Assembly: GCA_965203325.1 (NCBI GenBank)
Contig: OZ241875.1
Coordinates: forward strand, 3,328,001-3,392,000
DNA: 64,000 nucleotides
Direction: 5' to 3'
DNA from: a bacterium
GTDB lineage: Bacteria > UBA8248
Shown: in pieces, positions 4,348 to 26,105 of the stretch
How positions within the stretch are numbered: position 1 is the first letter of the stretch
How the letters are laid out: each line of letters begins with the position of its first letter
Made by a program: the position numbers and the translations under genes
The notes under the pieces: generated by a model
Seen by the model: the letters and a program-made list of their open reading frames with translations, nothing else
Databases searched by the model: none
Told to the model about the DNA's origin: nothing

Positions 4348-5157
4348 CTACCAGCTGGTGAACCTGGCCATAGGCGACGCGTCTTCGATGATTTCCACTT
4401 CCTCGCGGGAAAGCTTCTCGAAGGCGAGGCACATGGCGACCTCCTCCCAGGAGTCCCAGGGTCCGTGCTCCTCGCCCGTGGCGAGTTCGACCACGGTGTA
4501 GCGCGGCGGGTAGAGGGGCAATCCCTTGTGCTCGCCCGAGGAGTGCCAGGAGCGCCGCGCACACGGTTCGCACCGGGCGGCAAGGCCCGCCGGCCGGCCA
4601 CAGTCCACGCAGAGCCACCGTGCGCGCCTTTTTGCGTAGCGCGCCCGGCTCGCGGCGTTCTTCTTTGGAGCGCGTCCCTCCCCGAGCGCGGCGCACGGGC
4701 CGCATTGCGCGGCGACGGCGAACGTCGGCCTCCCGCAGCGGCCGCACAGGCCTTTCGCTCTCCTGGCGGCGTAGAGCTTTTGCTCTTCAGCGCGCCTCAC
4801 CTCCCGGCAGGTCTCGCACACGGCGCCGCCCTCTACCGGGGGACGCTCTCCGCAGGCCGTGCAGAGGCCGGCCGCCTTGCGTTCGCGCCTTCGCCTCTTG
4901 CTCCTCTCCCGCGCCATGCGGCGTCGTCCCTCGGGGTTCTTCCCCCCGTAGGGGTCCCCGGCGGCCTTGCCTCTCGCGTAGCGGGCGCGCTCGGCGGCCC
5001 GCCCCCTCTCGAGGCAGGGTTCGCACATGCTGCGCCCGGGCGCGGGAGGATGTTTTCCGCACTTGGGGCACAGGCCCATCGCTCGGCGTTCGGCGGCGCG
5101 CCGGCGGTGGCGTTCGCGCTCTTTCTTTCGTCCCTCCTCGGGGTCCTTGTACGGCAT
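4348..5157 (-). CDS. Basic protein with four CxxC...CxxC zinc-finger-like repeats
   Basis: GLCPKCG..CEPC, GLCTACG..CETC, GLCGRCG..CGPC, WLCVDCG..CEPC separated by Arg-rich helices; GGAGGGGGAG RBS. Confidence 0.75.
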   Translation of the reverse strand: MPYKDPEEGRKKERERHRRRAAERRAMGLCPKCGKHPPAPGRSMCEPCLERGRAAERARYARGKAAGDPYGGKNPEGRRRMARERSKRRRRERKAAGLCTACGERPPVEGGAVCETCREVRRAEEQKLYAARRAKGLCGRCGRPTFAVAAQCGPCAALGEGRAPKKNAASRARYAKRRARWLCVDCGRPAGLAARCEPCARRSWHSSGEHKGLPLYPPRYTVVELATGEEHGPWDSWEEVAMCLAFEKLSREEVEIIEDASPMARFTSW

Positions 5158-5171
5158 CCGTCTCCCCCTCC

Positions 5172-5486
5172 TCAGCGCCGGCTGCTTTGGGCAAAAAATC
5201 CCGTGGCGTACGCCCCCCAGTATTGAACCCCGCTGTCCCTGGTGCGCAGGCCCGTGCAGACGATGATCTCGTCCCGCGCGGGCCGCATCTCCCGGACGGC
5301 TTTCCGGGTGGCCGTCGCTCTCTTCATCCTGCGCCCGCTCCCGGTCTTCGCTTCCGCAGCGGGAATGGGGCGGATATCGCCGTCCATCGTCGACTTGAAC
5401 CGTTCCACGGCGTATCGCTCGTCTTCGAGTCCTTGGCCGAAGGTGTGGGTGAGGAAGGTGTTCGACTCTCGCATGGTCGTCCGCAT
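5172..5486 (-). CDS. Hypothetical protein
   Basis: AAGGAGG RBS; operonic with the 4348-5157 gene. Confidence 0.55.
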   Translation of the reverse strand: MRTTMRESNTFLTHTFGQGLEDERYAVERFKSTMDGDIRPIPAAEAKTGSGRRMKRATATRKAVREMRPARDEIIVCTGLRTRDSGVQYWGAYATGFFAQSSRR

Positions 5487-5877
5487 CGCGCGCCTCCTTG
5501 CTGTGGGTGGTCGGGAAGGCGGAGAACGTCCTCTCCCGGACGCCCTTCCGCCGCCCCCTCCCGGCCCGGCTCTACCTCTCGCCGGCGCGTGGCCGGGGGG
5601 AGGTGCGCGATGAACGCCCCGGCGCTCGGGGCCGGGCGAGGCGCGCTGCGGAAAAATTTTTTGTCATATCCCTGCGCAGCCGGTCGCATGCGAGACCGCG
5701 TATGGCGCGCGGGCGTTGGAAACTGGATATAGAAAACTCTTGCAAACGAGATGTTTATGCTTTATTCCCGTTCTGGATGCAGGCGATGCGAGCCTATGCT
5801 CGCATGACGTCGTAGGCTCAGGGCGTAAGGTTCGAACGCGAAGGAGGGATGCGGATGAACGGGAACGGGGGAACTGC

Positions 5878-5945
5878 CTGAGGACGCCGGGCTTGCGTCC
5901 GATGCCGTCGGAGAGTGGACCGAAGATGATCTGCCCGAGGCCGGA
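5878..5945 (-). pseudogene. Fragment of a Bcr/CflA-type MFS transporter
   Basis: Isolated GLGQIIFGPLSDGIGRKP (MFS motif A) with no surrounding gene. Confidence 0.5.
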
Positions 5946-5972
5946 ACGGCGCCACGGGCAAATACTTTGTAA

Positions 5973-6156
5973 GGGGGGCTGTTGAAAAAGCCCGCACAGT
6001 GCCCTGCAAGTAGAGGGTTTGTAGGGACAGGCCCCCGTGCCTGTCCCTGCGAAGCGCAACCACGAGGATGGACATATCCGATACGGGCGGCCACAGGGGG
6101 TCGCCCTTACGAGTGAATGCGGTTTTGGCCATCTTCCGGCGAATGCCGGAATGACG
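5973..6156. repeat. MITE end plus REP cluster
   Basis: GGGCTGTTGAAAAAGCCC end; GTAGGGACAGG..CCTGTCCCTGC and TTCCGGCGAATGCCGGAATGACG palindromes. Confidence 0.6.
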
Positions 6157-6313
6157 AACGAAAACTTCTCGGCAAACGAGAGATTGTCCCGCAGGGGCCG
6201 CATACATGCGTACATGGACGCCCCCACCGATTCATGTTTAGATACGGATACGTAGATAACCAGCGAGAACGCGAAGCAGGAACAGCCTGATTGAGTCAAG
6301 AGAAGGGGGAACA

Positions 6314-7231
6314 ATGGAATTGAAAGCGAGACGAAGGTTTGTGGGAATGTATAGAAATTATTTTGTGAGGGAGGACAAAAAAAGTCTATCTATACGGTCC
6401 ATAAAATACCTCGCCTTGTGTTTTGCTTTGTTATTTCCATTGAATGCTTTTTCAGTGGGAGATCTTCTTGGTTGCAATAGTAGTGATACACTGGAAAGAT
6501 ATAATAAATTACATAAGCTGATAAAAAATGATTCAAATATTGCCCTTGTGTATAATTTAGCTATCACTTCTTTGTGTCTTGGAAAAACAAATGAGGGAAT
6601 GTCTCATCTTCAAAGGGCTTCGGATTCAGGCCATATTGTAGCTACTTATTTATTGGGTCTTTATTATAAAAAAAATCACACTTTTGATTCTGCGGAAAGT
6701 GTTGAAGGTATAGAAAATCTAAATAATGCTATTCATTACTATACTAAAGCGGCTCAAATAATTGAATCTTTAACTAATTACCCCGAAGGGGCAACAGAAG
6801 ATATGATGTATATTGAATCCACAGTTTATACTAGCTACTATGTGTTTAGAAATTTACCTGATCTTTATTTTAAAGGATATTCTTTTGCAATTAGAGATAT
6901 TGTGAATGGTAGTACAAGAGTTTCTTATACTGATACTTTAGATGTTTTAAATAATATGCGTACAACAGCTATTATGTGTGTAGAAAGGCCTTCTCTTTCT
7001 GTTTGGAAAAGTAAAAGAGATATAATTTATCAAGCTCAGCAAATTAAATGTGAAGCTTTACTACGTTTTGCAGAAGCTGTTTATCCTTTGGAGCAACAAA
7101 GACTACAGATAGCTCAGAACTGTGCAATTCCTCCCAGCAAATGTTCTGAACATAAGGCAATAGTCGGTCAAATTGGTCAGTTGGTTGGGAATATGTTTAA
7201 CCAAATAAGGTCAGCTCCTAAAATAAATTAG
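6314..7231 (+). CDS. Secreted Sel1-like repeat protein, very AT-rich
   Basis: Hydrophobic signal segment; EGMSHLQRASDSGHIVATYLLGLYY and AIHYYTKAA Sel1-like helices; sharp GC drop. Confidence 0.75.
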   Translation: MELKARRRFVGMYRNYFVREDKKSLSIRSIKYLALCFALLFPLNAFSVGDLLGCNSSDTLERYNKLHKLIKNDSNIALVYNLAITSLCLGKTNEGMSHLQRASDSGHIVATYLLGLYYKKNHTFDSAESVEGIENLNNAIHYYTKAAQIIESLTNYPEGATEDMMYIESTVYTSYYVFRNLPDLYFKGYSFAIRDIVNGSTRVSYTDTLDVLNNMRTTAIMCVERPSLSVWKSKRDIIYQAQQIKCEALLRFAEAVYPLEQQRLQIAQNCAIPPSKCSEHKAIVGQIGQLVGNMFNQIRSAPKIN

Positions 7232-10203: not shown

Positions 10204-11163
10204 ATGACTGCCACCGCAATTCACGACCACAAGGAGATGATCATGCACGAGCACGCAGAGCACGAAGCGCAGAACGAAACCTTCACTGCCATGGTATGCG
10301 AACAGGCCGCCCTGTTCGGCGCCACCCCCGGCCCCGACGAGTTCGACAACCGGCCCGTCTGGGGCGAGGCCGAGGCAACCGCCGCCGTCCTCAAGGCATT
10401 CCACCTGCTCGCCGAGGCAACGCCCGACGGAACCCAACTGGCCGATGAGCGAAGAAACCTCCTGTGGGGCTTCGTCAACACCCTCGACGCCCAGACACAG
10501 CGGCTCGACCGCGCCGCCGACAAGCTCATCCCCGGCATCCGTGAACTGCAGCGCGAGCAGGACGGCTCCGAGATCAGGTCGCGCGAGCTCGAACTCGCGA
10601 CCGACCGGGCCGAGAACCTCACCGCCCGCCGCGACGCCTTCGAGGTGCTGCGCGACACGGCCGCCGAGGCCTACCGCGTCGAGACCGGCGAGGTCTGGCG
10701 GCCACGGCGAGGATCACACGTCTCGCAGACCGGCAAGCTCACGTCGGCGGTGATCGAGGCGCGTGACTTCCAGCGCGCGAAAAAGGACCGCGAGAACACG
10801 GCCCACCTCCCCCAGGGAACGCTCGTCGCCGTCGCGGGAGGCAAGGAAGCCACCGACGCGGGAAAAATCATCGGCCAGCTCGACAAGCTGAAAGCCAAGT
10901 ACGCCGACGTCGTCCTCGTCCACGGCGGCGGCCCCGGTGCGGAGAAGGTTGCAGCCGGCTGGGCCGAACGGAACGGCGTCCACCAGATCGTCTGCAAGCC
11001 CGACTGGGACGCCCACGGCCGGGCCGCTCCTTTCCGGCGCAACGACGAGCTGCTCTCCCTCCTCCCCAAGGGCGTGATCGCGTTCCCCGGCTCGGGCATC
11101 ACCGACAACCTCGTCGACAAGGCTCGAAGCCTCGGCATCCCTGTACAACGCGTGGCCGCCTGA
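10204..11163 (+). CDS. DUF2493 (SLOG/YspA-like) protein (paralogue)
   Basis: Same motifs as 1008-1958. Confidence 0.85.
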   Translation: MTATAIHDHKEMIMHEHAEHEAQNETFTAMVCEQAALFGATPGPDEFDNRPVWGEAEATAAVLKAFHLLAEATPDGTQLADERRNLLWGFVNTLDAQTQRLDRAADKLIPGIRELQREQDGSEIRSRELELATDRAENLTARRDAFEVLRDTAAEAYRVETGEVWRPRRGSHVSQTGKLTSAVIEARDFQRAKKDRENTAHLPQGTLVAVAGGKEATDAGKIIGQLDKLKAKYADVVLVHGGGPGAEKVAAGWAERNGVHQIVCKPDWDAHGRAAPFRRNDELLSLLPKGVIAFPGSGITDNLVDKARSLGIPVQRVAA

Positions 11164-11481: not shown

Positions 11482-11624
11482 TACCAATCTGGTAGCACTC
11501 GAACCTTTTGAAATCATTTCGCTTATAGAATCGCGTATGCTCATGTAATACGGGAAGTTCCTGCAAGATACCAGATTGGTAGTACACGGAGGCGCGCTGC
11601 GCTATGATGGCTACCATTTTGGTA
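11482..11624. promoter_or_regulatory. Three TACCA-N3-TGGTA palindromic operators (candidate oriT/RHH sites)
   Basis: TACCAATCTGGTA 11482, TACCAGATTGGTA 11569, TACCATTTTGGTA 11612; related AACCAGACTGGTA at 545. Confidence 0.6.
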
Positions 11625-11756
11625 GTTCATGAAACGGCATCAAGGGCATCGTTTTTGGGCCCGATGCGGGTGTGTTTGGTGCAGGAAATGAGTATTTTTG
11701 CGGTCGTTTTGCGACCGGTACGGATGAAAATCTTGTTGAGGGGAGCGGCGAAACGG

Positions 11757-12062
11757 ATGGTTCAGACGATACAGAAGAACATCAGGGTCACGCCCGAACA
11801 GTGGAAACGAATTGAAAATGAGGCCGAACAGCGCGAAATGTCGCCCAACCGAATGGTGATAGAGCTCGTGATGGAAGCCCTGGAGCGCCGCGAATGGCCC
11901 CAAACCGAAGCGGAAATCCACCTGCTTCGCTCCGCTATGTTCGTCGCACAGGCCATCATTCGCGACATGGAGAAGGACGGACGAGATGAAGAAATAGAAC
12001 AAATCAGCAGAAACATTTCCGAAGTCGCGCCGGAATTGCCGGGCAAATCGGCACAGAATTGA
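11757..12062 (+). CDS. Ribbon-helix-helix DNA-binding protein
   Basis: KNIRVTPEQWKRIENEAEQREMSPNRMVIELVMEAL; GAGGGGAG upstream of ATG 11757. Confidence 0.65.
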   Translation: MVQTIQKNIRVTPEQWKRIENEAEQREMSPNRMVIELVMEALERREWPQTEAEIHLLRSAMFVAQAIIRDMEKDGRDEEIEQISRNISEVAPELPGKSAQN

Positions 12063-12453: not shown

Positions 12454-13419
12454 ATGGGTATAGTCATCGACAGGAAAATTCCGAACAGACTTTATAAGTA
12501 TCGCGATTTTAGCAATCACACCTTGGACATGATCTTAAGCGATAACGTCTACTTCGCGGATCCGATCACTTTCAACGATCCCCTGGATACTAGGCCGTCA
12601 CTGGAGATCGATTTGGATGAAAGTCAACTAGAAGATATCGTGAGGAGACTTGTCGAACGAAGCACTAGGATCCAGATGGAAGCCGCGGCAGATACCATCG
12701 GGTACCATGGCCCCGATACGATGGCTCACATCAAGCGGCAGAGTCGGCGAAAGGCTGATCGGCTTATTGAGGAAATCGATTACCACGCCACGAATCCGTA
12801 TTACGATTCCGAAGATCGAAAACGTTTTCTTTTAGGTCACTACATTGAGAAGGAATTGCTTCGCCAATACGACAAGGGGGTCGTATCGCTTGCTGAGCGG
12901 GTTACGTGCCCCTTGATGTGGAGCCATTATGGCGATCAGCATCGTGGCGTTTGCATCGGGTATTCTGTTCCGCCTAGCGCAGACGATCTTTACAAGGTGA
13001 AGTACGGCGGTAGCAGGCTGATCGAGACGAGCAAGGTAGCCGCCATGCTAAATGGAGATGATACCGCCCGCGTCCAGGTTTACGAAGCTGTACTTTTGCG
13101 GAAAGCCCGTAGTTGGAGCTATGAGCGCGAGTGGCGGCTGATTGGTCGTCGTGGACTTCGAGACTCTCCGCTAGAGATGGAAGAGATTATTTTTGGCATG
13201 AGATGCACGCAGTCGGCAAAATATGCGGTGATGAAGGTAATGCAGAATAGGGAGCGGCCGGTAAAATACTACGAGATGCGTGAGGTTGCGGGAACGTTTC
13301 GTCTGAGAAAATTCGCTTTCAACAAAGATGACCAATTGTGTGTATATTTTCCGAGAAGGGCTCTCACTATAATTGAAGCATTTCAAGATTATACAACTTC
13401 ACCCAAGCAGAAACGTTAG
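12454..13419 (+). CDS. DUF2971 domain protein
   Basis: LYKYR, FNDPLD, LMWSHYGDQHRGVCIGY, K..WSYEREWR. Confidence 0.9.
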   Translation: MGIVIDRKIPNRLYKYRDFSNHTLDMILSDNVYFADPITFNDPLDTRPSLEIDLDESQLEDIVRRLVERSTRIQMEAAADTIGYHGPDTMAHIKRQSRRKADRLIEEIDYHATNPYYDSEDRKRFLLGHYIEKELLRQYDKGVVSLAERVTCPLMWSHYGDQHRGVCIGYSVPPSADDLYKVKYGGSRLIETSKVAAMLNGDDTARVQVYEAVLLRKARSWSYEREWRLIGRRGLRDSPLEMEEIIFGMRCTQSAKYAVMKVMQNRERPVKYYEMREVAGTFRLRKFAFNKDDQLCVYFPRRALTIIEAFQDYTTSPKQKR

Positions 13420-13634: not shown

Positions 13635-14096
13635 TCAACTTTTTGACGGTATATCCAAGGTGGTTTCAAATTCTCGGTCGTTCCCACGAATCCAATGTTC
13701 GAGCGCATCGGCTGTCCTATCCACTAAATCCCCTTGCAGCGCACATTCCCAAACCACTGCTACTCGCCAACCACTTTCCAGCAATTTCTTCCGCACATTT
13801 CGGTCACGCTCCATATTAGCACGGAACTTTGCTTGCCAGAATTCCGCTCGGGTAGCGGGATCGGTTGCTCGAGAGCAGCCGCTATGTCGATGCCAGAAAC
13901 AACCATGCACGAAACATACCGCGCGGAAACGATCGAAAGCCATATCTGGCGTGCCAGGAAGTTTGCGAACATGAAGTCGGTATCTGAGACCCCGTCCGTG
14001 AAGCGCACGGCGCAGAACAAGTTCCGGTTTCGTGTCCCGGCTACCGACGCGTGCCATTATGCGAGAACGCGTTGCTCGATCCACTATGTCGGACAT
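13635..14096 (-). CDS. vsr: Very-short-patch repair endonuclease
   Basis: RSRIMARVGSRDTKPE, LPGTPD, FVHGCFWH, VVWEC. Confidence 0.95.
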   Translation of the reverse strand: MSDIVDRATRSRIMARVGSRDTKPELVLRRALHGRGLRYRLHVRKLPGTPDMAFDRFRAVCFVHGCFWHRHSGCSRATDPATRAEFWQAKFRANMERDRNVRKKLLESGWRVAVVWECALQGDLVDRTADALEHWIRGNDREFETTLDIPSKS

Positions 14097-14205
14097 TGTC
14101 AGCCCTGTTCACATCGATGAGTTAGCTTGTGATAAATAAATTGTCCTTCGACCCTAAGTGCAGCCGAAACCGTTCAGGCTAGGCCAAGTCTGCTCACCCA
14201 TTGTC

Positions 14206-14952
14206 TCACTCTCTCCAATAAACCTCCGTTGCGAGGTACTCGTGGATTACAGACTTTACCGACACACTATCGCCCCAGTCTTCGGCCGTATACCGATAAA
14301 CACCATCTTGAACGATGACCCATGACCCAAACATATCTGCCTGACGTGGGTCGACCTGAAAGCGCATCCTCTGGAACATCCGAGTTCCGATCTCCGACCA
14401 TAGTCCTAATTCCGAATATGCGGTTTCAAATTCCTCATATTGCTCTTGGGAAAGGAGTTGTAGTGGAACGGCTATGACCGTTTCTGGTTTCTCTACCAGC
14501 CAGCGATCTAGATCATACGATGCGTGACAACGCGCGTTTTTAACTATCACCCTATTCACTCTCTCTGGTTCCGGCACGAAGGTAATTTCAGATTCACCGA
14601 ACAGTGTCTCGGTCTCTATCCTTGCTTCTTCTATTCGCGCGCGAAGTCCCTGCTGCCGCATGAACGTTTTGGCCATCCCTGCATTCTTCTGCTTTTGTGG
14701 ATCTGTCGACCCGGTCAGCACTGCACTCAAAAGCGCTGCCAAATACTCTTCGTCACGTGAAAAACTTGAATTGCATTCACGACACGCCGCTGTAGTCATT
14801 AACTCTTCTGGGTAGGGTTTCATCAAAAGGGACTTTGAAGGAATGTGTTCTTGCGTAGAATTCGTCTCATCTAGTTTTATTCCACAGTGTACGCAAGTGC
14901 GTTCTGGCCACCTTAGACGCTCGTCTACATAAGACTCTGTAAAGCGTTTCAC
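14206..14952 (-). CDS. HNH endonuclease
   Basis: CVHCG...TQEHIPSK...ACRECNSSF. Confidence 0.8.
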   Translation of the reverse strand: MKRFTESYVDERLRWPERTCVHCGIKLDETNSTQEHIPSKSLLMKPYPEELMTTAACRECNSSFSRDEEYLAALLSAVLTGSTDPQKQKNAGMAKTFMRQQGLRARIEEARIETETLFGESEITFVPEPERVNRVIVKNARCHASYDLDRWLVEKPETVIAVPLQLLSQEQYEEFETAYSELGLWSEIGTRMFQRMRFQVDPRQADMFGSWVIVQDGVYRYTAEDWGDSVSVKSVIHEYLATEVYWRE

Positions 14953-15059
14953 TCACTCCTCCATCTGGACACAGGAGATTTCAACGCCGTAAATTCACCA
15001 GAAGGCCAAGATTGATACGCTGCTGCACTTCGCTATCTTATGAGCATCCTGCAATACCG

Positions 15060-16139
15060 TCACTCATCCCGTACAAACCCGTGTTGAGCAAGGTGAGACG
15101 CTATCGAGCGGCCAATAACTTCGCCGAGCAATACTGGAACCGCGTTCCCAATCATTCGGCCGACCGCCTTGAACTGGACCCGTTTACCTTGCGAAACAAA
15201 TTGATAGTCACTTGGGAATGATTGCAAGATAGCGCCTTCCCGCAATGACAAGGCCCGATCCTGTTCCGGATGACCAAAGCGGCCGTTCCCAAATCCAAAA
15301 AACTGCGTTGTGATTGTGGGTGCCGGTTCGTCGAACTTCATTCTCCCATACACCGACCTATATCCTTTTCCCGTCTTGAGTCGGTGGCATGGCGCTACCA
15401 ACTCCTCGTCCCAATCAGCCCAGCTACCTCCCGGAACCGATGCCCTGATGCGCTTCAAGTTCATGGGTGACAAGCGGCTCGCTCTATGCAAGCCGTCAGT
15501 CTTATCCGTCTCTCCTGCTGCCAAAGGTGGGAGTTTTCCAATTACCTGCTCTACGGTTTGATAGTTTTCCGGGGAATAGGTCGGCTTCTCCAGCTTTATC
15601 CTGCCATGCAAAGACGCCATCACGACTAACCGGGACCGCCGTTGTGGAAGGCCGTATGCTGGAAGGAATGCGATACGGCGGCTAACACTGTATCCTGCCT
15701 TTCTCAACGACGCCAAGAAGCTTCGAAAGACTTTTCCGCCTTGATAGTCCATGAGGCGTGGTACATTTTCCATCGAAACTACATCTGGCTTGATTTCAGT
15801 AACCAATTCGCAGAATCGCCCAATCAGTCGCCAATTTGGGTCATCATTTTTCTGGTTGTACACCGAAAACGGCTGGCAAGGCGTGCATCCCACCAATATT
15901 TTCGGTTGATCGCGCTCGAATAACTCAACCACCTCGCTGGACGAAAGATCGTCGACATCCCGACAAATGAATTTTGTATTGTTATTATGCTCAAAGGGAT
16001 ATTGACATTCGGCATCAACATCCACTCCAGCTACAATCCGAAACCCAGCCCTCGCTAAACCATGCGTCAAGCCACCCGCTCCGCAAAACAGATCCACAAC
16101 CGAGCCAGGTGGCTGCGACTGTGCGTATTGTGTGTGCAT
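15060..16139 (-). CDS. dcm: DNA (cytosine-5) methyltransferase
   Basis: DLFCGAGG, GCTPCQPFS, MENV, QRRSR, LSLREGAILQSFP, IGNAVP. Confidence 0.97.
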   Translation of the reverse strand: MHTQYAQSQPPGSVVDLFCGAGGLTHGLARAGFRIVAGVDVDAECQYPFEHNNNTKFICRDVDDLSSSEVVELFERDQPKILVGCTPCQPFSVYNQKNDDPNWRLIGRFCELVTEIKPDVVSMENVPRLMDYQGGKVFRSFLASLRKAGYSVSRRIAFLPAYGLPQRRSRLVVMASLHGRIKLEKPTYSPENYQTVEQVIGKLPPLAAGETDKTDGLHRASRLSPMNLKRIRASVPGGSWADWDEELVAPCHRLKTGKGYRSVYGRMKFDEPAPTITTQFFGFGNGRFGHPEQDRALSLREGAILQSFPSDYQFVSQGKRVQFKAVGRMIGNAVPVLLGEVIGRSIASHLAQHGFVRDE

Positions 16140-16268
16140 CCTTTTCTGATTTTGGGCCTTAACCAATGTCGTCCTCTGTTAGTTCTAGGCATATCACCCT
16201 ACTCAATCGGTGTTCTCCTGCCTTTCCTGTATTGGCAACTCGCTCATATCTTGTTCTTCGTATTGTGC

Positions 16269-16943
16269 TTAATGGGACAATACCTTATTCAACGCTCCAC
16301 AAAGCATCTTATTATTTCGCATCTGTGCGTCTTCCAACACACGCTCTCGTATTTCTGACAACCCGTTCATCCCATATAGCGATACAATCAGGCACAAAAG
16401 AAGCTCTAGAGACGACTCGGCCGCCAGCGGAAACGTCGGGTATCGTGTTGAAAGTGGCAGAGCGTGCATTATTGGATCATCTCGCGCACCCATCGACCGA
16501 CAGGGTTGAGCATGGCAATAGTCGTGGTTCTCTCCCTCCTCGGGCGTTTCGTATCTAAATCCGACAAATGCGGTGTGCTTACTTTCCGTGCGGGCATCTT
16601 CCGCCTGATAGGTAGGTTTCTGGGACCAAATGCCAAAGTAAAATGCACATTTTGGTAACGCTAAATCAAAATCCCAGCGACACCATAATGCGGCAGCTGC
16701 TGACGTTTCCTTCGTAGGAGGTACAATGTAGATTGCCTGATTCTCCCTAAACTGACCTCTGTTACCTCCGTGAAGAAAATGCCTTTCCAATTCTGTCCGC
16801 TCGATTGGACTGAACTTCCTTGTAGCTTCAATAGTCGCGGCATTAACTGCAGGTGGCCTATCAAGACGTGTCCACTCTGTTCCCTTGCTTTGAAGCAAGC
16901 TTAGAACAAGCCCAACAGCCTTTTGCTCTTCTGTAGCGGGCAA
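16269..16943 (-). CDS. Hypothetical protein in the MORC/Dcm operon
   Basis: Starts 3 nt after the stop of the receiver gene; GFRYETPE..HDYCHAQP motif. Confidence 0.7.
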   Translation of the reverse strand: MPATEEQKAVGLVLSLLQSKGTEWTRLDRPPAVNAATIEATRKFSPIERTELERHFLHGGNRGQFRENQAIYIVPPTKETSAAAALWCRWDFDLALPKCAFYFGIWSQKPTYQAEDARTESKHTAFVGFRYETPEEGENHDYCHAQPCRSMGARDDPIMHALPLSTRYPTFPLAAESSLELLLCLIVSLYGMNGLSEIRERVLEDAQMRNNKMLCGALNKVLSH

Positions 16944-16946
16944 TGA

Positions 16947-18143
16947 TCATCCCCCGAATGCCAAGCGTCTCTGTGGGCCATAATTTATCCCCTCAATATT
17001 TTTCATATACCGCCGATCATGCAAATTATGAAATCCCGCTCTGAAATCAGTTGCCTCTGACCTTTCGGCAAACACCGAGCAATCCTCTAAAAACACAACG
17101 TCTGGGACATTGCTAAAGTCAAAAGCCGCTCTCTGGGTGCTTATTTCTTCGTTTGTTTCCAGCCTCTGATACCAAACCGCCGGCTTCGACAAACAGTCTG
17201 AAGGCTTGAACCAATAATTTTCATCCAAGACGTTATTCAACGGTTTCATGTGGTGTATAGTGTCATTCCAAGCGCCTATGTCCGATACATTTTTCCCCAG
17301 CAAGAACGGGAACCTCTGCAACAAGTGCGGCACATCAATAAGAACATCCTGCGGTCCTAATATCTCTCGCTCCAGTAGCTTCCCAATTCGTGCAGCCACA
17401 AATCGAGCACTGGCCTCTGGCTCACTCTCCAAGAGTGCTTCTGCATCGCGGCCATTTGGTGTCATAGAAAGAAACGATTTAAATGTTATTGTTTCGAGTT
17501 CGTTAAAGTTACTTGCCTTAGGTGCAATAAACTCAAATGCGGTGTCGGATAAGCGGAACACATCTATCACTTCCATGCCCAGCGTTTCAACGATGGAACA
17601 ATCGAAGCCCTTATTCACCATGTTTACCCTGGCCCTTTGGGTCTCCACAGCCTGAGAGAGAGTTTGCCAAGACCAAGGTCTGAATCCCTCCCATGGTGGT
17701 CCTTTCCACAAACTTGGGGTCGCAATCAATTTGTCGTTTATATTCAGATCTGCGTGACTTGTTAAATGACCTCGAAGACTCAGATCAAAATCAGTTCCTC
17801 GATATTGATTGAGAACCACAATTACGGAGCAATAGGAAAACGTGCGTGCAAGTCTCGCTATGCTTTCTCCAGTGTGCTGCGCATTGTTGTCATCGATGTG
17901 TAAAAGATCGTAATCGATAAAAAGAATATCCGCGTCATCGAATAGGCACTTCTCATTTTTGCGCTGCTGTTTTTCCCGTACGGTTCCTCTTCGTTGCAAC
18001 ATTTCCCTTGTGGCGTCACGCACGTCATCGTTGGTTGGTACTGGAAGTAATTTGTACTCTGGAGGTGCGACTTCCTGGATTTTCTCAACCCAGTGTTCCG
18101 CGATTTCTTGTTCATCATCACAGACAAGAACGGAATATGTCAT
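16947..18143 (-). CDS. Response-regulator receiver-like domain with long C-terminal extension
   Basis: SVLVCDDE and ILFIDYDL (acidic pocket and putative phosphoacceptor Asp); ATGA overlap with the upstream gene. Confidence 0.75.
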   Translation of the reverse strand: MTYSVLVCDDEQEIAEHWVEKIQEVAPPEYKLLPVPTNDDVRDATREMLQRRGTVREKQQRKNEKCLFDDADILFIDYDLLHIDDNNAQHTGESIARLARTFSYCSVIVVLNQYRGTDFDLSLRGHLTSHADLNINDKLIATPSLWKGPPWEGFRPWSWQTLSQAVETQRARVNMVNKGFDCSIVETLGMEVIDVFRLSDTAFEFIAPKASNFNELETITFKSFLSMTPNGRDAEALLESEPEASARFVAARIGKLLEREILGPQDVLIDVPHLLQRFPFLLGKNVSDIGAWNDTIHHMKPLNNVLDENYWFKPSDCLSKPAVWYQRLETNEEISTQRAAFDFSNVPDVVFLEDCSVFAERSEATDFRAGFHNLHDRRYMKNIEGINYGPQRRLAFGG

Positions 18144-20371
18144 TTTCCTGAACTCCAAGACATTTGAAATGCAGCAGTCCACTCTGGCGACGGCTTGATG
18201 AACGCTACCCGGGCATGTCTCTGATTCGCTATCATTCGTACTATTGTCAGACCAAGCCCCATGCCTCCAAGTCCAAGCTCCCGTCGCTCCTCCGAAATCG
18301 CGGTATATCGCGTGAACGGCTCGAAGAGTTCCTCCGAATTCTCATAATCTACACCTGAGCCATTGTCCTCGACCCGAACCCAAGCGGTTCGCCCTGTCCT
18401 TCCACCAACACACCTTATCCGCCGTTCACTTAAATCGAGTGTCGCATTGGCTGCGTTAATAAATACGTTTTGAAACAAGGAATTCCATTCGGCAAATGTA
18501 GCTGCAGGTAGATATATGTCTGAAGGTATCGTTATTTCAAATCCTATTCCTGGGATCAGCGGTTGAACGTTTTCGAAAACTTGTTTCACCACTTCTGCCG
18601 CTGACAGCGCTTCTACTTCATCTCGATCATCCGATTCCAGAAGCGGACCGAACAATCTGCGAGTCTTTTCCACCCTGTCTACCCATTTGCCGACTTGATC
18701 AACGATGTCACCGATACGCGGCTCCTTCAAGTCTCGTCCTATCCTGCGCAATCTTCGTAGCAATTGGCGGGCCCGCTGCATTTCCTTGCGGCTCTCGTGT
18801 TCCAAGGCGAGCGCTGCCATTCCAGCAGTAGCCAGAGGACCGAGCAACGTTCGAGCCCCTTCTTCCGCTGTACGCTCTTTGTCCAGTATCTCGGAAAGGC
18901 CGTTGAATTCATCTTCCAACGCCTCGATCGTATCGTCGTCGGGATAAGTTCTGCGGGCTTCAAGAAGCAGCGAATGAACCCTTCCAAGCTTCTCGGTCGA
19001 CGGCTCCTTGGGACGTAACACGTCGGCCTTCTGTTGCTCCCTGAGACGTTGCCTCGTTGCGTAATAGTCCAACGACCAACGCACCGCATCTCGAAGGGAC
19101 TGATACGTTTGGTTCGCTACAAGACGATCTCTCGTCACTTGTATTTTGAGAAACTCGCCACTCTCTTTCTGGGACTCGCTCGCGGTTTGCGCTTCATTTC
19201 CGGTATCAATCGACACAACGCCAAATAGGCGTCCTTGTGTCGGCAAATCGTTCAACGCCCGTCGTACTTGAAGTCGTTCGGGAAGTAGATTGGATCTGTT
19301 TCTCCGATGCGAGTGGTCGAACTCGATTCCGAGCCAATCCTGCTCGACGCCATAATAGGGAAGCCGAAATCCCGCATCATATACTTGTACACCACCAAAC
19401 CGCTCGAAATATTCGCGCGCGGTCTTAACTTCTATACCACCCGCTTGTCTACCGGAAAGCTTGAAGACCCTGATCTGCCATTTCGCAGACCCGATCAATG
19501 GATCGGTGTCGAAAGCTTCAGAATATTGCTCTCCAGACCGAAACATGACTTTGACGTGTGCCTTTGTATTGTCACCGTCTCTGGCCAACTCTCCTGAAAT
19601 AACGGCTATATAGTTCTGCAGCGCAGCTTGCATTTGCCGGTCAAAAGAATCTTCGATGCCGGGCAGAGTCGAGTCCAATTCTATGCGAAAGTCATCTGGA
19701 GCCGCCTCTTGGTTGGTCAATACGCCGTAGCTAGGAATTGGTGACTGAATCATCCACAACTGACGACCCAAATCGCGAATACGTTCCGCATCCCAGTCTT
19801 GCTTGAGATTCATCATTTTTACGAGAGTGCCGTGTGGCTTTTCCCTTGGAAAGGACATATCGCGTCGCTCAGTCTTGTACAACGCTTTAGCCTCTGTGAG
19901 ATTACCCGCTTCTATTGCATCGTCCCAATCTACAACCGCTCGTAACTGTCGAGTAGGCTTCTCTTTGGGAGCCGTTACGAGTTCAAGCTCATGAGCGAGA
20001 AACTGAACCGAGAGTCGACCTACTCCTTTTGAGCCGGTGACATTTCGCCCAAAGAGTCGGCTATTTGTGCGGTTTTGTTTGTTTCTCGTTCCAATGGTCA
20101 TCCAATGTTCCAAAAACTCATCTTCGGTCATGCCATGACCGTTGTCGGTTACCGTGATTTCATTTTCGTCAATCGAAATTGTGCAAAGTGTGGCATCTGC
20201 GTCGTACGCGTTCTTTATCAGTTCCGCGAGAGCAATATGCGGTTGGCCGACAAGTAGTTCTCCGAGTTCTCGCAGCAAAGCCGAGTCAGCTTGAAACATT
20301 ACGGGCTTATAACCGTGGAGTGAACCCGCAAGCGTTTCTGTTTCAGATGTGCCAATATCGTTCATCACCAA
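18140..20371 (-). CDS. MORC/MutL-type GHKL ATPase fused to a histidine kinase module
   Basis: N-terminal ELIKNAYDADA, DNGHGM, GSKGVGR, HGT; C-terminal LEHE (H box), NVFINA, EDNGSG, LFEPF, GMGLGL. Confidence 0.9.
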   Translation of the reverse strand: MVMNDIGTSETETLAGSLHGYKPVMFQADSALLRELGELLVGQPHIALAELIKNAYDADATLCTISIDENEITVTDNGHGMTEDEFLEHWMTIGTRNKQNRTNSRLFGRNVTGSKGVGRLSVQFLAHELELVTAPKEKPTRQLRAVVDWDDAIEAGNLTEAKALYKTERRDMSFPREKPHGTLVKMMNLKQDWDAERIRDLGRQLWMIQSPIPSYGVLTNQEAAPDDFRIELDSTLPGIEDSFDRQMQAALQNYIAVISGELARDGDNTKAHVKVMFRSGEQYSEAFDTDPLIGSAKWQIRVFKLSGRQAGGIEVKTAREYFERFGGVQVYDAGFRLPYYGVEQDWLGIEFDHSHRRNRSNLLPERLQVRRALNDLPTQGRLFGVVSIDTGNEAQTASESQKESGEFLKIQVTRDRLVANQTYQSLRDAVRWSLDYYATRQRLREQQKADVLRPKEPSTEKLGRVHSLLLEARRTYPDDDTIEALEDEFNGLSEILDKERTAEEGARTLLGPLATAGMAALALEHESRKEMQRARQLLRRLRRIGRDLKEPRIGDIVDQVGKWVDRVEKTRRLFGPLLESDDRDEVEALSAAEVVKQVFENVQPLIPGIGFEITIPSDIYLPAATFAEWNSLFQNVFINAANATLDLSERRIRCVGGRTGRTAWVRVEDNGSGVDYENSEELFEPFTRYTAISEERRELGLGGMGLGLTIVRMIANQRHARVAFIKPSPEWTAAFQMSWSSGK

Positions 20372-21585: not shown

Positions 21586-22053
21586 ATGGATATAGATAGC
21601 TTAGACATTCCAGATGAGCCAGAAAGATTCAAAGAATTATGTGAAAAGATTGGCCTCGCTTTGATAATGACTCAGGAAGCGCATGTTTCACTATGCCTTT
21701 ACGATGTCTCTTATCGTGTACACAAGGGGCAATTAGAAAAAGAACAATTTAGTGAAAAACTGAATTCCAAATTGGATAATAAGAAATTAACTATGGGGGT
21801 AATAGCAGGGAATATCAAAAAATACGCACCTTTGAGCGGTGATCTTTCAAGGCGTGTGGAATTATTAGTCGATGACAGAAATTGGCTTGCACATAGATTA
21901 AATCAAGAATTAACTCCACTTGTTCTTGCTCGTAGTAGAGGTGAGGAATTCGATATTAGTCCTCTTATTTGCAAATTGGATAATATTGCCAATCAAGCCT
22001 GTGAAATTGTGTTTGAGTTGAATGTTATAGGTAATGAACTGATGCCAAATTAA
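21586..22053 (+). CDS. Helical protein with HEPN-like RxxxxH motif
   Basis: LTMGVIAG...DDRNWLAH. Confidence 0.6.
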   Translation: MDIDSLDIPDEPERFKELCEKIGLALIMTQEAHVSLCLYDVSYRVHKGQLEKEQFSEKLNSKLDNKKLTMGVIAGNIKKYAPLSGDLSRRVELLVDDRNWLAHRLNQELTPLVLARSRGEEFDISPLICKLDNIANQACEIVFELNVIGNELMPN

Positions 22054-22486: not shown

Positions 22487-23227
22487 TCAAGGTTGTGTAA
22501 ATTGATCATTCAACAAGTTTTTGTCAATAATTGCAGTATCGAAAATTTCAATCAAATTCCGAGACTTTTCCCAGAAATCGATCACAAATTGATAATTTAC
22601 AATAACCTTATCATCAATTGTATAAGTAAACGTAGGATTAGAACTCTGAAAATCCGCGTTTACGCGACCATCTGAGTGGACAAGGAAATGACGGATCTCA
22701 AGATACGGTTTCAGATCGTCTACTACACAATCGGGCACCCCCAAGCCAAGTTTTGTACTAATCTTTTGTAATAGCTTCAGGCTGCTGCGTTCGTTTTCCA
22801 ACGCTTGAAATACAGCTTCAGCCACGTACTTACAGACCTCTTCCCAACTACCCAGCCTCAACAGCGTTTGAGCATCTGTACTGAATGAATGCTCTCCGAT
22901 CATGCGCCCACCATCGAACCCGCTCTGAGCAGCTTGCTCCAGAATCGTCTTCATGTAGTGCATGACTTCCTCATAAACATTTTTCACAAACGATCCGTAA
23001 ACTGTAGATCGGAGATGGTTGATCACTAATTCTCTACTTTTATCGCTGTTTGCCCGCCGTTCGAGATGAGAATGTCGATTAGGGTTAACTTTAGCAAGCA
23101 CATACTGTGATTTTTGATCTGTTAAATCATTTTTCAAAACCGATATCCGAAGAACGTCCAGCAACTCGATATCGTCCAAGAAGTAATTTACCTTGGTTTC
23201 AAAGCTTTGTCGGGCTTTTGAGGGCAT
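22487..23227 (-). CDS. HEPN-domain protein (putative RNase)
   Basis: Helical; YEE near N-terminal third; EIRHFLVHSDG (RxxxxH). Confidence 0.7.
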   Translation of the reverse strand: MPSKARQSFETKVNYFLDDIELLDVLRISVLKNDLTDQKSQYVLAKVNPNRHSHLERRANSDKSRELVINHLRSTVYGSFVKNVYEEVMHYMKTILEQAAQSGFDGGRMIGEHSFSTDAQTLLRLGSWEEVCKYVAEAVFQALENERSSLKLLQKISTKLGLGVPDCVVDDLKPYLEIRHFLVHSDGRVNADFQSSNPTFTYTIDDKVIVNYQFVIDFWEKSRNLIEIFDTAIIDKNLLNDQFTQP

Positions 23228-24139
23228 CGTGTCATTCCATATTCAATGATTACTTTTCAAAATAAATCTGCTGCTGAGCTTATCTATGGAACTATGCCAG
23301 ATAAAGACTCAGCCTAACATTGTCTCTGGCCCGAAGAGCATAGTCGTTGTAGTCGACACGCCACAGGCGCGAGTCTAACACCGCTATAGGGTACGCCCAT
23401 TGGCGGCTGTACCAACATTGAGGCACATAGTTGCATGGCCCCAAGCAAGCTGTTGCGGGCCGACCTTTGGAGAGTGCTCCGACAGGCACGCCCTAGGATA
23501 CGCAGAGGTTTGATTCTCCTCGTTTGCGTTTTGATAACTTGTTGCGGAAGGTGGTTTCTGGACGAAACCCGGAGATGAATGCTTCTCAATGATATCAACG
23601 AGATAACTGAATTTTACGCCTGATGGAATTTCCCCGCTGCCTGAAAACACGCGAATTACAGGAATCAGCAGAAGTATTTCCCAAGTCGCGCAGCAATGCC
23701 CTTGCCTACCCGGCCCTCTGCGTAGGGCTATATGGAACAAGTGAGTTTTGGTGCAGGCTGTATATCTATGGGCTCGCAATGATTCCCTTCCCAGGATACG
23801 GACCATTGCAGCTTTGAGTATTGCCGGAGGTACTTAATATAGGAGCACTTGACCAGAGCAGGGCATCCCAGAAACCAAACCGCGCTGCGGAACATTGAGG
23901 TTACGTGCTCGGCGTTGATGAGGTTTACGGTTTTCCCGTAAGCGAATGTACCACGATATGTTGATGCATTTCGCTGATTGGATGCAATTACCGAACACTA
24001 TTGGATGACAGTCCATATCGCAAGAAATCTTCACCATTATATACGGTGTGGATTAGCTTTCTTTCCTGTTTGCAGAATGGAAAGAGAGGAATGATTTGGG
24101 TTCAGGTCGGTGAAGCTCACCCCGCCCGCTTTTACTTGT

Positions 24140-25852
24140 TTACCGCTTTCCGCCGAAACCCGCTGAAAGGTCAGCGCGCTCGAGCACGCCGCCCATTCCC
24201 TCGTGCGCAGTGCCAAAGAACGCGCCGGTGACCTCGCCTTCATCACCCCCGGTCTGCACGAAGGTGTTCTCTCGAACTTCAATCGTGTACCCCAGATCGC
24301 CGTCGCCCCACATCGTGCCGCTACCAACTGCTCCGGGCGCTTCCTTCACCCCCCATTTCTCGATGTTGTTGAAGTCGAGTTGGCCGTCGAGGCTCGCCAG
24401 TTGGACAACGAGACGAACGCCCCCGGCGACCGTTTCCGCCGACGGAGTAATGCCCAGGAGCGCGCCGTTCCAGGTGACGGTTCCCGACAATGCTGAATTA
24501 TCCGCCAGATTCATCTCCGGTTTAGGACCTGAGGCCCAGGGCTGCGCCAGACTGTTTCTTGCAGCAACGCCGAACGAAACTCCCCCTCCCTCAAAATCCA
24601 TTTTCCCAAGAAGATGAAACGACGTGTCGTCCCAAGCCCCTAGGTTTTCCGCCGTTAATTCCTCGGGCTGAGTGCCCGGCTCGAACCTGCTGTAGGCCGC
24701 AAGCAGAGCCTCGCTGTCTATTTTTGGAAGATGTTTGGTTACCAGCAGAAAGTTATCTCGCATTACCGATTCCGGGAAGCGAGTAGAATCAAGATGTCCC
24801 AGAAAACCTAAGGCGTGTATGAGTTCATGGAGGACAATCGAGAATACATCCTCTGCGGGGTATATTTTCCGTACCGTGTCTGACTCTACCACGGGATTTT
24901 CCAGCATTTTCTCTTCAAAATTACCTGTAGCGGGATTAAGCACCCAAGCCGCGTTCCTGATTCGTTTGGTGTCGAACCACAGATGCGACGCTCGTTTTCT
25001 TTTGAATTCAAATCGCTGTCTCTCCGAATTGTACTCAGAAATAGTTCCTCCACCATCGCTAATCCCCGCAGAACCAGGACGATAGTTCGAGTTTGCGAGA
25101 TTCCAGTCTTCTGCCGATGGGGCGAAGTCGACAAAAATCTGTCCGTCAGGAATATCTTCCATAGCAGCCAGAGGAGGGGCAGGATCCCTGCTGAACAGGA
25201 TGCGTTTCTCATACGGCAAGGCTGCGTTGATGTGTTGAACGGCGCGGACCACATATTCGGTGAACTCCTCACTCGTTCCCTCGGCAAGGCGGATAGTCGG
25301 CCGATCCGCAAACGTGGGAAGGCCCAGTGTATGAGACCCAAACGTGAATCCCTCGCCTGCTTGCGATAGTCCACCACCCACCATTTTCTCCAGATATTCG
25401 AGGACTCTGTCTGCACCGACACCGTCCTGCACTTCGCCGGATGAAACGGAGACTCCGTTGTAGTCAACCCTTGGCGTTAGCTGATCGGCTGGCGGCGAGA
25501 CATTGGAACCTAAGTACAGAGTATCCCCAAGCTCGACGATGGGCGCTTGCACTTCAAGAAGATCGCTTTCCTCATCGCCTGGTGCGAGAGTCGTCGGCGA
25601 GGCCGAAAGCGTGACCACCATGGGCTGCGCGGACGCGGGGGCGGTGAGAAAGAGCGAGAGCACCCCCAGCAGCAGCGCAAGCGCCGGGAGGAGAAGGGAG
25701 AAGCGGGCGCGGCGGCGCACGGAACGCGGGTCAGGTCTGCGCGGGGAGCCTGCCGAAGTCGCCGGCAGGCGCTGAGCGCTCATGCCGGCCTCTTCTTCGG
25801 ATGACGGGCTGTAGCCGATGCCGCCACCGGTTGCAAGCCGCGCGGTTCTCAT
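24140..25852 (-). CDS. Exported zinc metallopeptidase with C-terminal TbpB-like beta-barrel
   Basis: Signal LLLPALALLLG..APASA; HELIHALGFLGH plus SVM Met-turn; C-terminal GAFFGTAHEGMGG..AGFGGKR; GGAGGGG RBS. Confidence 0.8.
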   Translation of the reverse strand: MRTARLATGGGIGYSPSSEEEAGMSAQRLPATSAGSPRRPDPRSVRRRARFSLLLPALALLLGVLSLFLTAPASAQPMVVTLSASPTTLAPGDEESDLLEVQAPIVELGDTLYLGSNVSPPADQLTPRVDYNGVSVSSGEVQDGVGADRVLEYLEKMVGGGLSQAGEGFTFGSHTLGLPTFADRPTIRLAEGTSEEFTEYVVRAVQHINAALPYEKRILFSRDPAPPLAAMEDIPDGQIFVDFAPSAEDWNLANSNYRPGSAGISDGGGTISEYNSERQRFEFKRKRASHLWFDTKRIRNAAWVLNPATGNFEEKMLENPVVESDTVRKIYPAEDVFSIVLHELIHALGFLGHLDSTRFPESVMRDNFLLVTKHLPKIDSEALLAAYSRFEPGTQPEELTAENLGAWDDTSFHLLGKMDFEGGGVSFGVAARNSLAQPWASGPKPEMNLADNSALSGTVTWNGALLGITPSAETVAGGVRLVVQLASLDGQLDFNNIEKWGVKEAPGAVGSGTMWGDGDLGYTIEVRENTFVQTGGDEGEVTGAFFGTAHEGMGGVLERADLSAGFGGKR

Positions 25853-25859
25853 ACCCCTC

Positions 25860-26105
25860 CGTAATTCAGGTTTGCCTGTGAAGGATGTTTTCATTTCCTG
25901 CCCCCCTGGCCCTCGCCAGGACAAGGGCCCCTTGTCTTGCTCCTTGCGCAAAGTAACCAGATTCAAGCTCTTTTATTATACAAAAACTGTCTATCCTATT
26001 CGTATTTAATATCTTTGCTTTCATGCCATTATTGTGTATTCATGCATTTTATCGTATTTTCCGGTCCCGGGAAGGGGGAGAGATGAACGAAAGCGACGAG
26101 GCGGG
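25860..26105. repeat. AT-rich divergent regulatory block, homologous to ~36570-36815
   Basis: TACAAAA..GTCT..CGTATTT..TCTTTG.TTTCATGC..CCGGTC.CGGGA..ATGAA.GAAAGC..CGAGGCGGG occurs in both. Confidence 0.75.

Follow-up and report, generated by a model that had tools for sequence, protein, structure and literature searches.

The systems that most resemble the element described here are HEF_HK (PF19191) kinases and Response_reg_2 (PF19192) proteins encoded beside restriction-modification (R-M) genes, a class defined computationally by Bellieny-Rabelo, Pretorius and Moleleki (2021, PMC8011034). According to the available text of that paper, kinases of the domain order HATPase_c_3, HEF_HK and HATPase_c adjoin Response_reg_2 genes with a linkage of 91.6% over 644 regions, C5 methylase, Vsr and HNH_2 genes occur in excess nearby, and Response_reg_2 has a conserved Thr at the end of strand 4 and a conserved Lys at the end of strand 5. 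No experimental paper was found in the literature on PF19191, PF19192, HEF_HK and Response_reg_2. Here we report a cassette of six co-oriented open reading frames (ORFs) on the minus strand, occupying positions 13635-20371 of a 64,000-nucleotide (nt) stretch of DNA from a bacterium of the lineage UBA8248 (assembly GCA_965203325.1, contig OZ241875.1, positions 3,328,001 to 3,392,000 of the forward strand; hereafter the window), just where an initial annotation of the stretch had placed them. The genes encode a kinase with two GHKL ATPase domains, a receiver-fold protein, a small protein of 224 amino acids (aa), a C5 cytosine DNA methyltransferase of the Dcm type, an HNH-type nuclease candidate and a Vsr very-short-patch repair endonuclease.

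Two experimentally characterized defence systems offer further points of comparison, each taken here from the accessible portion of a preprint. Ambrosia of Pseudomonas aeruginosa (AbrR, AbrA, AbrB, AbrC, AbrD; van den Berg et al., bioRxiv 10.1101/2025.09.30.679545) comprises an XRE (HipB-like) regulator, an N6 methylase, a kinase/HATPase protein, a winged-helix receiver and a type IV HNH protein. It blocks phages, and mutating conserved residues in each predicted domain abolishes defence, so that the initial annotation's remark that no mechanism had been worked out must be qualified for this related system, in which the block is lost with the receiver mutant D60A. Before infection there is hardly any expression at the methylase and HNH positions of Ambrosia, and phage that has been methylated beforehand remains sensitive. 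In Detocs (DtcA, DtcB, DtcC; Rousset et al., bioRxiv 10.1101/2023.01.24.525353), the kinase directly activates an enzyme-bearing receiver, and His and Asp mutants lose defence. The paraMORC R-M systems of Iyer, Abhiman and Aravind (2008, PMC2292703) combine a MutL/MORC-like ATPase head with helicase and nuclease partners, within operons that also hold C5 methylases, Vsr and HNH nucleases, and the same authors likened paraMORCs encoded next to methylases to MutL in its very-short-patch repair role. The initial annotation credited that paper with kinase and receiver partners in R-M operons, but neither 'receiver' nor 'two-component' occurred in a term search of its available text, and the link was instead described by Bellieny-Rabelo et al. 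(PMC8011034).

The kinase gene (18140..20371, minus strand) has a longest ORF of 743 aa, with a probable ATG at 20365 that gives 741 aa. Its product consists of a MutL/paraMORC-type ATPase head (Pfam HATPase_c_3, residues 45-151, E 9.1e-26; codons 19919..20239, minus strand), followed by a middle region, by DHp-like helices bearing the H-box His and by a CA domain (Pfam HATPase_c, residues 632-722, E 6.1e-20; codons 18206..18478, minus strand), and NCBIfam histidine-kinase models cover residues 523-740. The H-box ('LEHE') His is His525 in the 743-aa ORF and His523 in the 741-aa form (codon 18797..18799, minus strand). The presence of two GHKL domains and an H box in one protein, as first annotated, is thus borne out, and the succession of HATPase_c_3, a DHp-like His-Glu H-box and HATPase_c is the one called the 'group 1' architecture. 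The H-box His did not vary in any of the 40 kinases aligned (40/40), one of which is 41% identical, and equally invariant were the head motifs E..N..D, DxGxG and GxxGxG and the N-box Asn, DxGxG and GxGxGL motifs of the CA domain. A weak TIGR00585 match marked the head as MutL-like. The BbrUII/HgiDII model (NF050001) matched the head only, aligning residues 32-204 with model positions 9-182 of 659 at 92.1 bits, and so fell short of a full-length match above its cut-off of 550. GHKL-headed restriction enzymes of that kind are linked to Dcm and carry a nuclease body, whereas the kinase of the window carries a histidine-kinase core after the head.

The receiver gene (16947..18143, minus strand) overlaps the kinase gene by 4 nt, with kinase stop and receiver ATG sharing an ATGA junction, in agreement with the overlap first annotated. 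Its longest ORF reaches 18182, and translation probably begins with the ATG of codon 14, which yields 398 aa. No Pfam, NCBIfam or PADLOC family matched the protein, even with Pfam tried up to E 10. Homologues numbered 244, with no Pfam domain among the 120 listed, and an exhaustive profile search recovered 675 representative clusters (defined at 50% identity) at E<=0.001 and 462 at E<=1e-30; with few exceptions these proteins are 385-450 aa long and were matched end to end. An AlphaFold2 model built from 40 sequences (predicted local distance difference test score, pLDDT, 89.7) placed a receiver fold at residues 1 to about 170 and a C-terminal domain at about 171-398. When compared with 48,161 chains by VIA-align, about 115 residues superposed at about 3.3 Å with Z 8.2-9.5, and almost all of the best 50 matches listed were receiver domains. 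Foldseek agreed weakly with the receiver fold; PorX, at the top of its list (E 1.3e-3), gave a template-modelling (TM) score of 0.21 and a root-mean-square deviation of 19 Å and was accepted as a receiver-domain match only.

Within this fold, Asp9, Asp10 and Asp77 were invariant in all 40 receivers and were kept in two relatives, L009 and L010, at 26-32% identity. Asp77 (codon 17913..17915, minus strand) ends strand 3 of the model (residues 73-77) and is the likely phospho-acceptor predicted here, because Asp79 is Asn in one divergent relative while Asp9, Asp10 and Asp77 are kept; a MAFFT alignment also retained Asp77 in L009, L010 and the receiver of L012, a cassette of the canonical PF19191/PF19192 class. 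The initial annotation had made its relay depend on conservation of the His and Asp in homologues, and both were invariant (His in 40/40 kinases, the three Asp in 40/40 receivers). The C-terminal domain has its own invariant residues (Asp270, Pro272, His273, Glu353, Asp354, Ser356, Arg378 and Tyr388) and is rich in conserved Arg and Lys. No winged helix or other helix-turn-helix (HTH) family matched the receiver at Pfam E values up to 10, as the initial annotation had anticipated, and no Pfam family matched its C-terminus, where neither PNP nor another known effector domain was detected. The fold searches, made with the full-length model and dominated by the receiver domain, aligned no full-length response regulator beyond that domain. 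A sequence-profile search of the PDB gave three chance-level matches for the receiver, and the ESM Atlas returned nothing for its C-terminus.

The small third protein (16269..16943, minus strand; 224 aa) is a conserved partner whose gene begins 3 nt beyond the stop codon of the receiver. Pfam, NCBIfam and PADLOC gave no family for it, and none of its 98 homologues contained a Pfam domain. Arg130, Glu132, His140, His144, Gln146 and Cys184 were invariant, and Cys88, Cys99 and Cys148 were kept in at least 90% of the sequences. The structure prediction that the initial annotation had proposed gave a confident model (pLDDT 90.9) for which no structural neighbour was found: the best Foldseek match in the PDB had E 0.19, the best in BFVD E 0.023, none of 48,161 chains reached Z>=5 by VIA-align (best 4.6, with no receiver match), and PDB sequence profiles gave 0 matches. 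This result means that no match was found, and shows neither a different nor a new fold. Two candidate assignments were set aside. A DUF2290 assignment from the ESM Atlas (0.86, guide value 0.9) was unsupported by Pfam, which gave only single-member noise over all 44 members of the alignment, and the CE-clan or papain-like cysteine proteases and Legionella Ank effectors that made up 9 of the 50 VIA-align matches listed (Z 3.1-4.1, about 5 Å) are not claimed as relatives.

The arrangement was compared across 86 loci, comprising 80 metagenome contigs (27-54% receiver identity), five genome loci and the window, with genes called by hidden Markov models from our own alignments and by phmmer with the Dcm, Vsr and HNH of the window. 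In 70 of the 72 loci that could be evaluated, the kinase gene immediately preceded that of the receiver; of the misses, L087 has a kinase ORF that failed the distance filter and L017 holds Ns. Directly downstream of the receiver, the small protein was present in 66 of 69 evaluable loci, the misses being L082, which is cut by an insertion sequence (IS), and L086 and L087, where an unrelated 243-aa ORF takes its place. Among the 23 fully flanked loci, a C5 methylase was present in 22 (21 by phmmer, plus a Pfam-detected fragment in L010), in accord with the methylase link first annotated, and the sole locus without one was the IS-disrupted L082. Vsr occurred in 14 of the 23. The window-type HNH was found in only 3 of the 86 loci (the window, L033 and L059), and it is therefore accessory. 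A Pfam scan of flanking ORFs (at least 110 aa, within 1.5 kb of the cores, near-duplicate ORFs of the sister contigs L016, L041, L056 and L087 excluded) placed nuclease-type neighbours in 5 of the 23 complete loci, namely the window, L003 (HNH_2), L025 (Mrr_cat plus HNH_2), L029 (AspBHI_N plus Mrr_cat) and L076 (NOV_C), and no other neighbour was recurrent, the largest cluster among 221 flanking ORFs spanning three loci. These counts define a unit of kinase, receiver, small protein and methylase that is commonly joined by Vsr and, in some loci, by a nuclease; HNH and Vsr, which the initial annotation had included, are not parts of the core. Dozens of unrelated contigs repeat the gene order, far more than chance would give, and the family is spread over Pseudomonadota, Actinomycetota and the small phylum to which the host of the window belongs. 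The locus L082 (5215-8057) is decayed, with a kinase fragment and a DDE transposase directly after the receiver, at the position of the small gene.

The remaining genes of the cassette follow the small gene with gaps of about 100 nt between small gene, Dcm, HNH and Vsr. The Dcm gene (15060..16166, minus strand) matched Pfam DNA_methylase at E 7.9e-58 and PADLOC MTase_II at E 1.3e-90, and Vsr (13635..14096, minus strand) was recognised by Pfam Vsr (E 1.5e-29) and by TIGR00632, whose cut-off it exceeded with 144.7 bits. The HNH candidate (14206..14952, minus strand; 248 aa), a variable accessory, scored 25.1 bits against Pfam HNH_5, under the cut-off of 27.5, and its pattern CxxC...H...CxxCN, with His36, was invariant in the three sequences available, those of the window and two relatives. 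L009, a distant relative belonging to the taxonomic order of the window's genome, has Vsr and C5 methylase fused in a 639-aa ORF (4793-6712, plus strand; Pfam Vsr plus DNA_methylase), and L064 and L069 hold ORFs of similar size that may be the same fusion. Directly 3' of the small gene, L047 (1959-3155) and L029 (8862-10049) carry AspBHI-like proteins (RE_AspBHI_N plus Mrr_cat). The AspBHI-like family depends on 5-methylcytosine (5mC), and a nuclease of this type beside a Dcm-linked cassette is curious. Near the most divergent relatives lies an Eco57I-type N6-adenine methylase (L010:400-1866, L086:4337-6247 and L087:11158-13068), besides which a C5 methylase or fragment is present in all three.

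Comparison with the HEF_HK class revealed both likeness and distance. As in the class outlined in PMC8011034, the kinase of the window appears as a soluble protein with the same three-part architecture and an H-box His followed by Glu, it adjoins a receiver-like protein without a known output domain, and the genes are linked to C5 methylase, Vsr and HNH; the acidic pair and acceptor Asp in a receiver fold are likewise present in the window. The canonical cassette L012 is ordered Vsr, Dcm, kinase, receiver and a third small protein, and the window has the same five-gene logic, with lengths in the window and L012, respectively, of 741 and 984 aa for the kinase, 398 and 472 aa for the receiver and 224 and 246 aa for the small protein. 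By BLASTP the two kinases aligned in three collinear segments (E 7e-13, 1e-5 and 1e-7) that correspond to the head, the middle and the DHp-CA part; the H-box His falls opposite the His of HEF_HK, and the middle segment is conserved at residues 323-427 of the window kinase. MORC and paraMORC ATPases have a GHKL domain with intact ATP motifs and, behind it, an S5-fold transducer domain; in the window kinase the GHKL motifs are intact and this conserved middle segment lies behind them. The class profiles nevertheless failed on the window: PF19191 gave no match on the kinase (hmmscan, E up to 10) and none genome-wide at E<=0.001, and PF19192 gave none on the receiver, whereas L012 as positive control scored 101.6 bits with PF19191 and 104-107 bits with PF19192. 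Neither hhalign nor BLASTP found similarity between the receivers, and the small proteins likewise had none detectable. Because the profiles fail, the kinases align collinearly and the receivers and small proteins are dissimilar, the cassette of the window belongs to a sister lineage of the PF19191/PF19192 class that current models miss. The gammaproteobacterial genome G051 holds both kinds at separate loci, the canonical L012 (G051:C1:4909000-4928999) and the window-type L002.

The experimentally studied systems also differ from the window in gene content. Ambrosia, as described, resembles the window in having methylase, kinase/HATPase, receiver and HNH in one cluster, but it has an N6-adenine methylase, an XRE protein and a winged-helix receiver and neither a small third protein nor Vsr, whereas the window has a C5 methylase, the conserved 224-aa protein, Vsr and no detectable receiver HTH (10.1101/2025.09.30.679545). 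XRE (PF01381) had 17 matches in the genome and 0 in the window, this being the only HTH family scanned in small ORFs. The Ambrosia HNH is needed for defence, while the HNH type of the window occurs in 3 of 86 loci of its family and any nuclease neighbour in 5 of 23. Detocs shares the three-gene kinase-receiver module, and a receiver whose non-DNA-binding effector domain is switched on by phosphotransfer is a Detocs feature; it differs in TPR-repeat sensing, a PNP ATP nucleosidase effector, a stand-alone receiver as third protein and no methylase (10.1101/2023.01.24.525353), where the window has a GHKL head as putative sensor and a third protein without a receiver match (best Z 4.6).

The cassette has been horizontally acquired and is mobile. 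It sits in a low-GC island (about 12 to 25.5 kb) whose GC fraction is 0.48 (0.50 for the cassette itself), compared with 0.64 in the window outside it. Of the 51 genomes examined from the host phylum, 3 carried the cassette, as did 1 of the 29 that are of high quality, with the window's own genome counted. Relatives are flanked by transposases, resolvases and an ArdC gene, and two of 72,556 plasmids, both actinobacterial, carry the cassette with dcm adjoining and its proteins annotated as 'ATP-binding protein' and 'hypothetical protein'. An imperfect direct repeat of 35 nt (86% identity, at 12002-12036 and 23663-23697) brackets the low-GC segment with the cassette and may delimit an insertion; the window yielded no integrase. 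Where the island begins on the left, a YAcAr/SLOG-domain protein (10204-11163, plus strand) and a weak NikA-like match (11604-12062, plus strand) hint at a mobilisable element. The convergent neighbour of Vsr, outside the cassette, is a DUF2971 gene (12454..13419, plus strand) whose product matched the PADLOC candidate defence family PDC-S31 at E 2.2e-44 and may be a second defence gene in the island. Further island ORFs matched neither Pfam nor PADLOC: 21586-22053 (plus strand, 155 aa), 22487-23227 (minus, 246 aa), 23384-23806 (minus, 140 aa) and 24140-25966 (minus, 608 aa).

From these features we infer a role in defence, a phosphotransfer, a sensed signal and an output, which would fit together as follows. 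Dcm would place 5mC on host DNA, and Vsr would mend the resulting T:G mismatches. A soluble, dimeric kinase would sense through its MutL/paraMORC-like head, the signal most likely being foreign (unmethylated) DNA or an infection cue; the initial annotation had likewise envisaged sensing of DNA by the MORC-like head. ATP-driven closure of the head, relayed to the DHp-CA core, would lead to autophosphorylation of His525, and the phosphoryl group would pass to Asp77 of the receiver. Phosphorylation would then turn on an output formed by the receiver C-terminal domain with its 224-aa partner, and HNH would be an added nuclease arm at the locus of the window. We consider that the chances are evenly balanced for the cassette being a mobile, methylation-linked anti-phage or anti-plasmid system of a 'restriction-modification plus two-component' class that works in this way. 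Ambrosia, whose phage block needs the receiver Asp, and Detocs, a precedent for direct activation of an enzyme-bearing receiver by a kinase, speak for it. The interpretation in the initial annotation is partly supported, in its domain calls, the His/Asp conservation and the link to a methylase. The stronger version, that the receiver C-terminal domain and the 224-aa partner form an unprecedented phosphorylation-gated effector and that the core of kinase, receiver, partner and Dcm provides methylation-guided immunity without a classical restriction nuclease, is tentative and would more probably prove wrong; the partner's confident fold without a solved neighbour, its invariant Arg/Glu/His/His/Gln cluster and its conserved cysteines are the features that suggest it.

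Several observations weigh against this defence model. The receiver family has an invariant Asn112 at the usual Thr position and no conserved Lys after strand 5, where the L012 receiver has Thr and Lys in the MAFFT alignment, as do receivers of the HEF_HK class in the available text of PMC8011034; with the usual Thr and Lys replaced, canonical switching is not assured, and the protein could be a pseudo-receiver. To this are added the failure of both class profiles on the window and the dissimilarity of its receiver and small protein to those of L012. No nuclease gene was recognisable in 18 of the 23 complete loci, leaving the effector without a candidate there. Only the two plasmids mentioned above carry the cassette, and 0 of 50,697 phage records had a match. 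Finally, the frequent presence of Vsr implies constant host methylation, which fits self-marking but also a non-defence epigenetic or repair role.

The main rival to the defence model is an Ambrosia-like control, in which an infection-sensing kinase and a DNA-binding receiver C-terminus would switch on Dcm, HNH and Vsr, the triad of kinase, receiver and small protein would be regulators, and the HNH, possibly methylation-dependent, would attack DNA. The induction of the Ambrosia methylase and HNH on infection, its requirement for the receiver Asp and the sensitivity of pre-methylated phage, all as reported in the accessible part of the preprint (10.1101/2025.09.30.679545), argue for this account, as do the many conserved Arg and Lys in the receiver C-terminus, the gaps of about 100 nt that leave space for internal promoters and the methylation-dependent kinds of nuclease beside relatives (AspBHI_N plus Mrr_cat in L047 and L029, Mrr_cat plus HNH_2 in L025). 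However, a scan of the locus found 11 promoter sites where 10.2 were expected and thus no excess, searches to E 10 gave the receiver neither an HTH nor a winged-helix family, the fold searches aligned it with no full-length response regulator past its receiver domain, and XRE (PF01381) had no match in the window. In addition, 18 of the 23 complete loci offer no nuclease gene to activate, and the presence of Vsr at 14 of 23, together with the Vsr-Dcm fusion in L009, argues for constitutive methylation. We regard transcriptional control of this kind as unlikely overall.

Both other readings are less likely. A non-immune role, in which the triad would be a methylation-linked repair or epigenetic module, such as a MutL-like helper acting with Dcm and Vsr on 5mC mismatches or a regulator of the methylase, accords with the MutL-like head (the weak TIGR00585 match), with Dcm (22/23) and Vsr (14/23) as constant companions and with the rarity of nucleases; MutL stimulates Vsr in E. 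coli, a subject on which the references of PMC2292703 include a study. The parallel between very-short-patch repair and paraMORCs in PMC2292703 points the same way. The sporadic, mobile distribution (3 of 51 phylum genomes, a low-GC island, flanking transposases), the adjoining candidate defence gene PDC-S31 and the restriction-type neighbours at some loci nevertheless speak against it. Mismatch repair is not known to involve a relay from kinase to receiver. As the tested relative Ambrosia is moreover a defence system according to the available text of the preprint (10.1101/2025.09.30.679545), we judge this role improbable. More improbable again, to the point that we give it very little credence, is mere adjacency of an ordinary type II system (Dcm, HNH and Vsr) and an unrelated two-component-like triad. 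By themselves, Dcm, HNH and Vsr could plausibly form a type II system, they are set off from the triad by gaps of about 100 nt, and in L003 the Dcm, Vsr and HNH_2 genes lie on the opposite strand, but the triad comes with a C5 methylase in 22 of the 23 fully flanked loci, over identities of 27-54% and with more than one gene order, the link is kept in the distant L009 and on actinobacterial plasmids, and the sister family shows the same link over 644 regions in the available text of PMC8011034.

Although the architecture was already described computationally in 2021, the cassette of the window is a separate branch with its own receiver and small protein, a family missed by current Pfam and PADLOC models save for the generic ATPase and methylase domains. 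Since two of the three core proteins have no assigned activity and one has no structural relative found, novel effector chemistry may be involved, and the effector could possibly be of a previously unseen fold. If the core works as proposed here, a MutL/MORC-type DNA ATPase would be wired to a His-Asp relay to control immunity, and the eukaryotic MORCs pose a parallel question, namely how a signal arises when such a protein clamps onto DNA at the expense of ATP.

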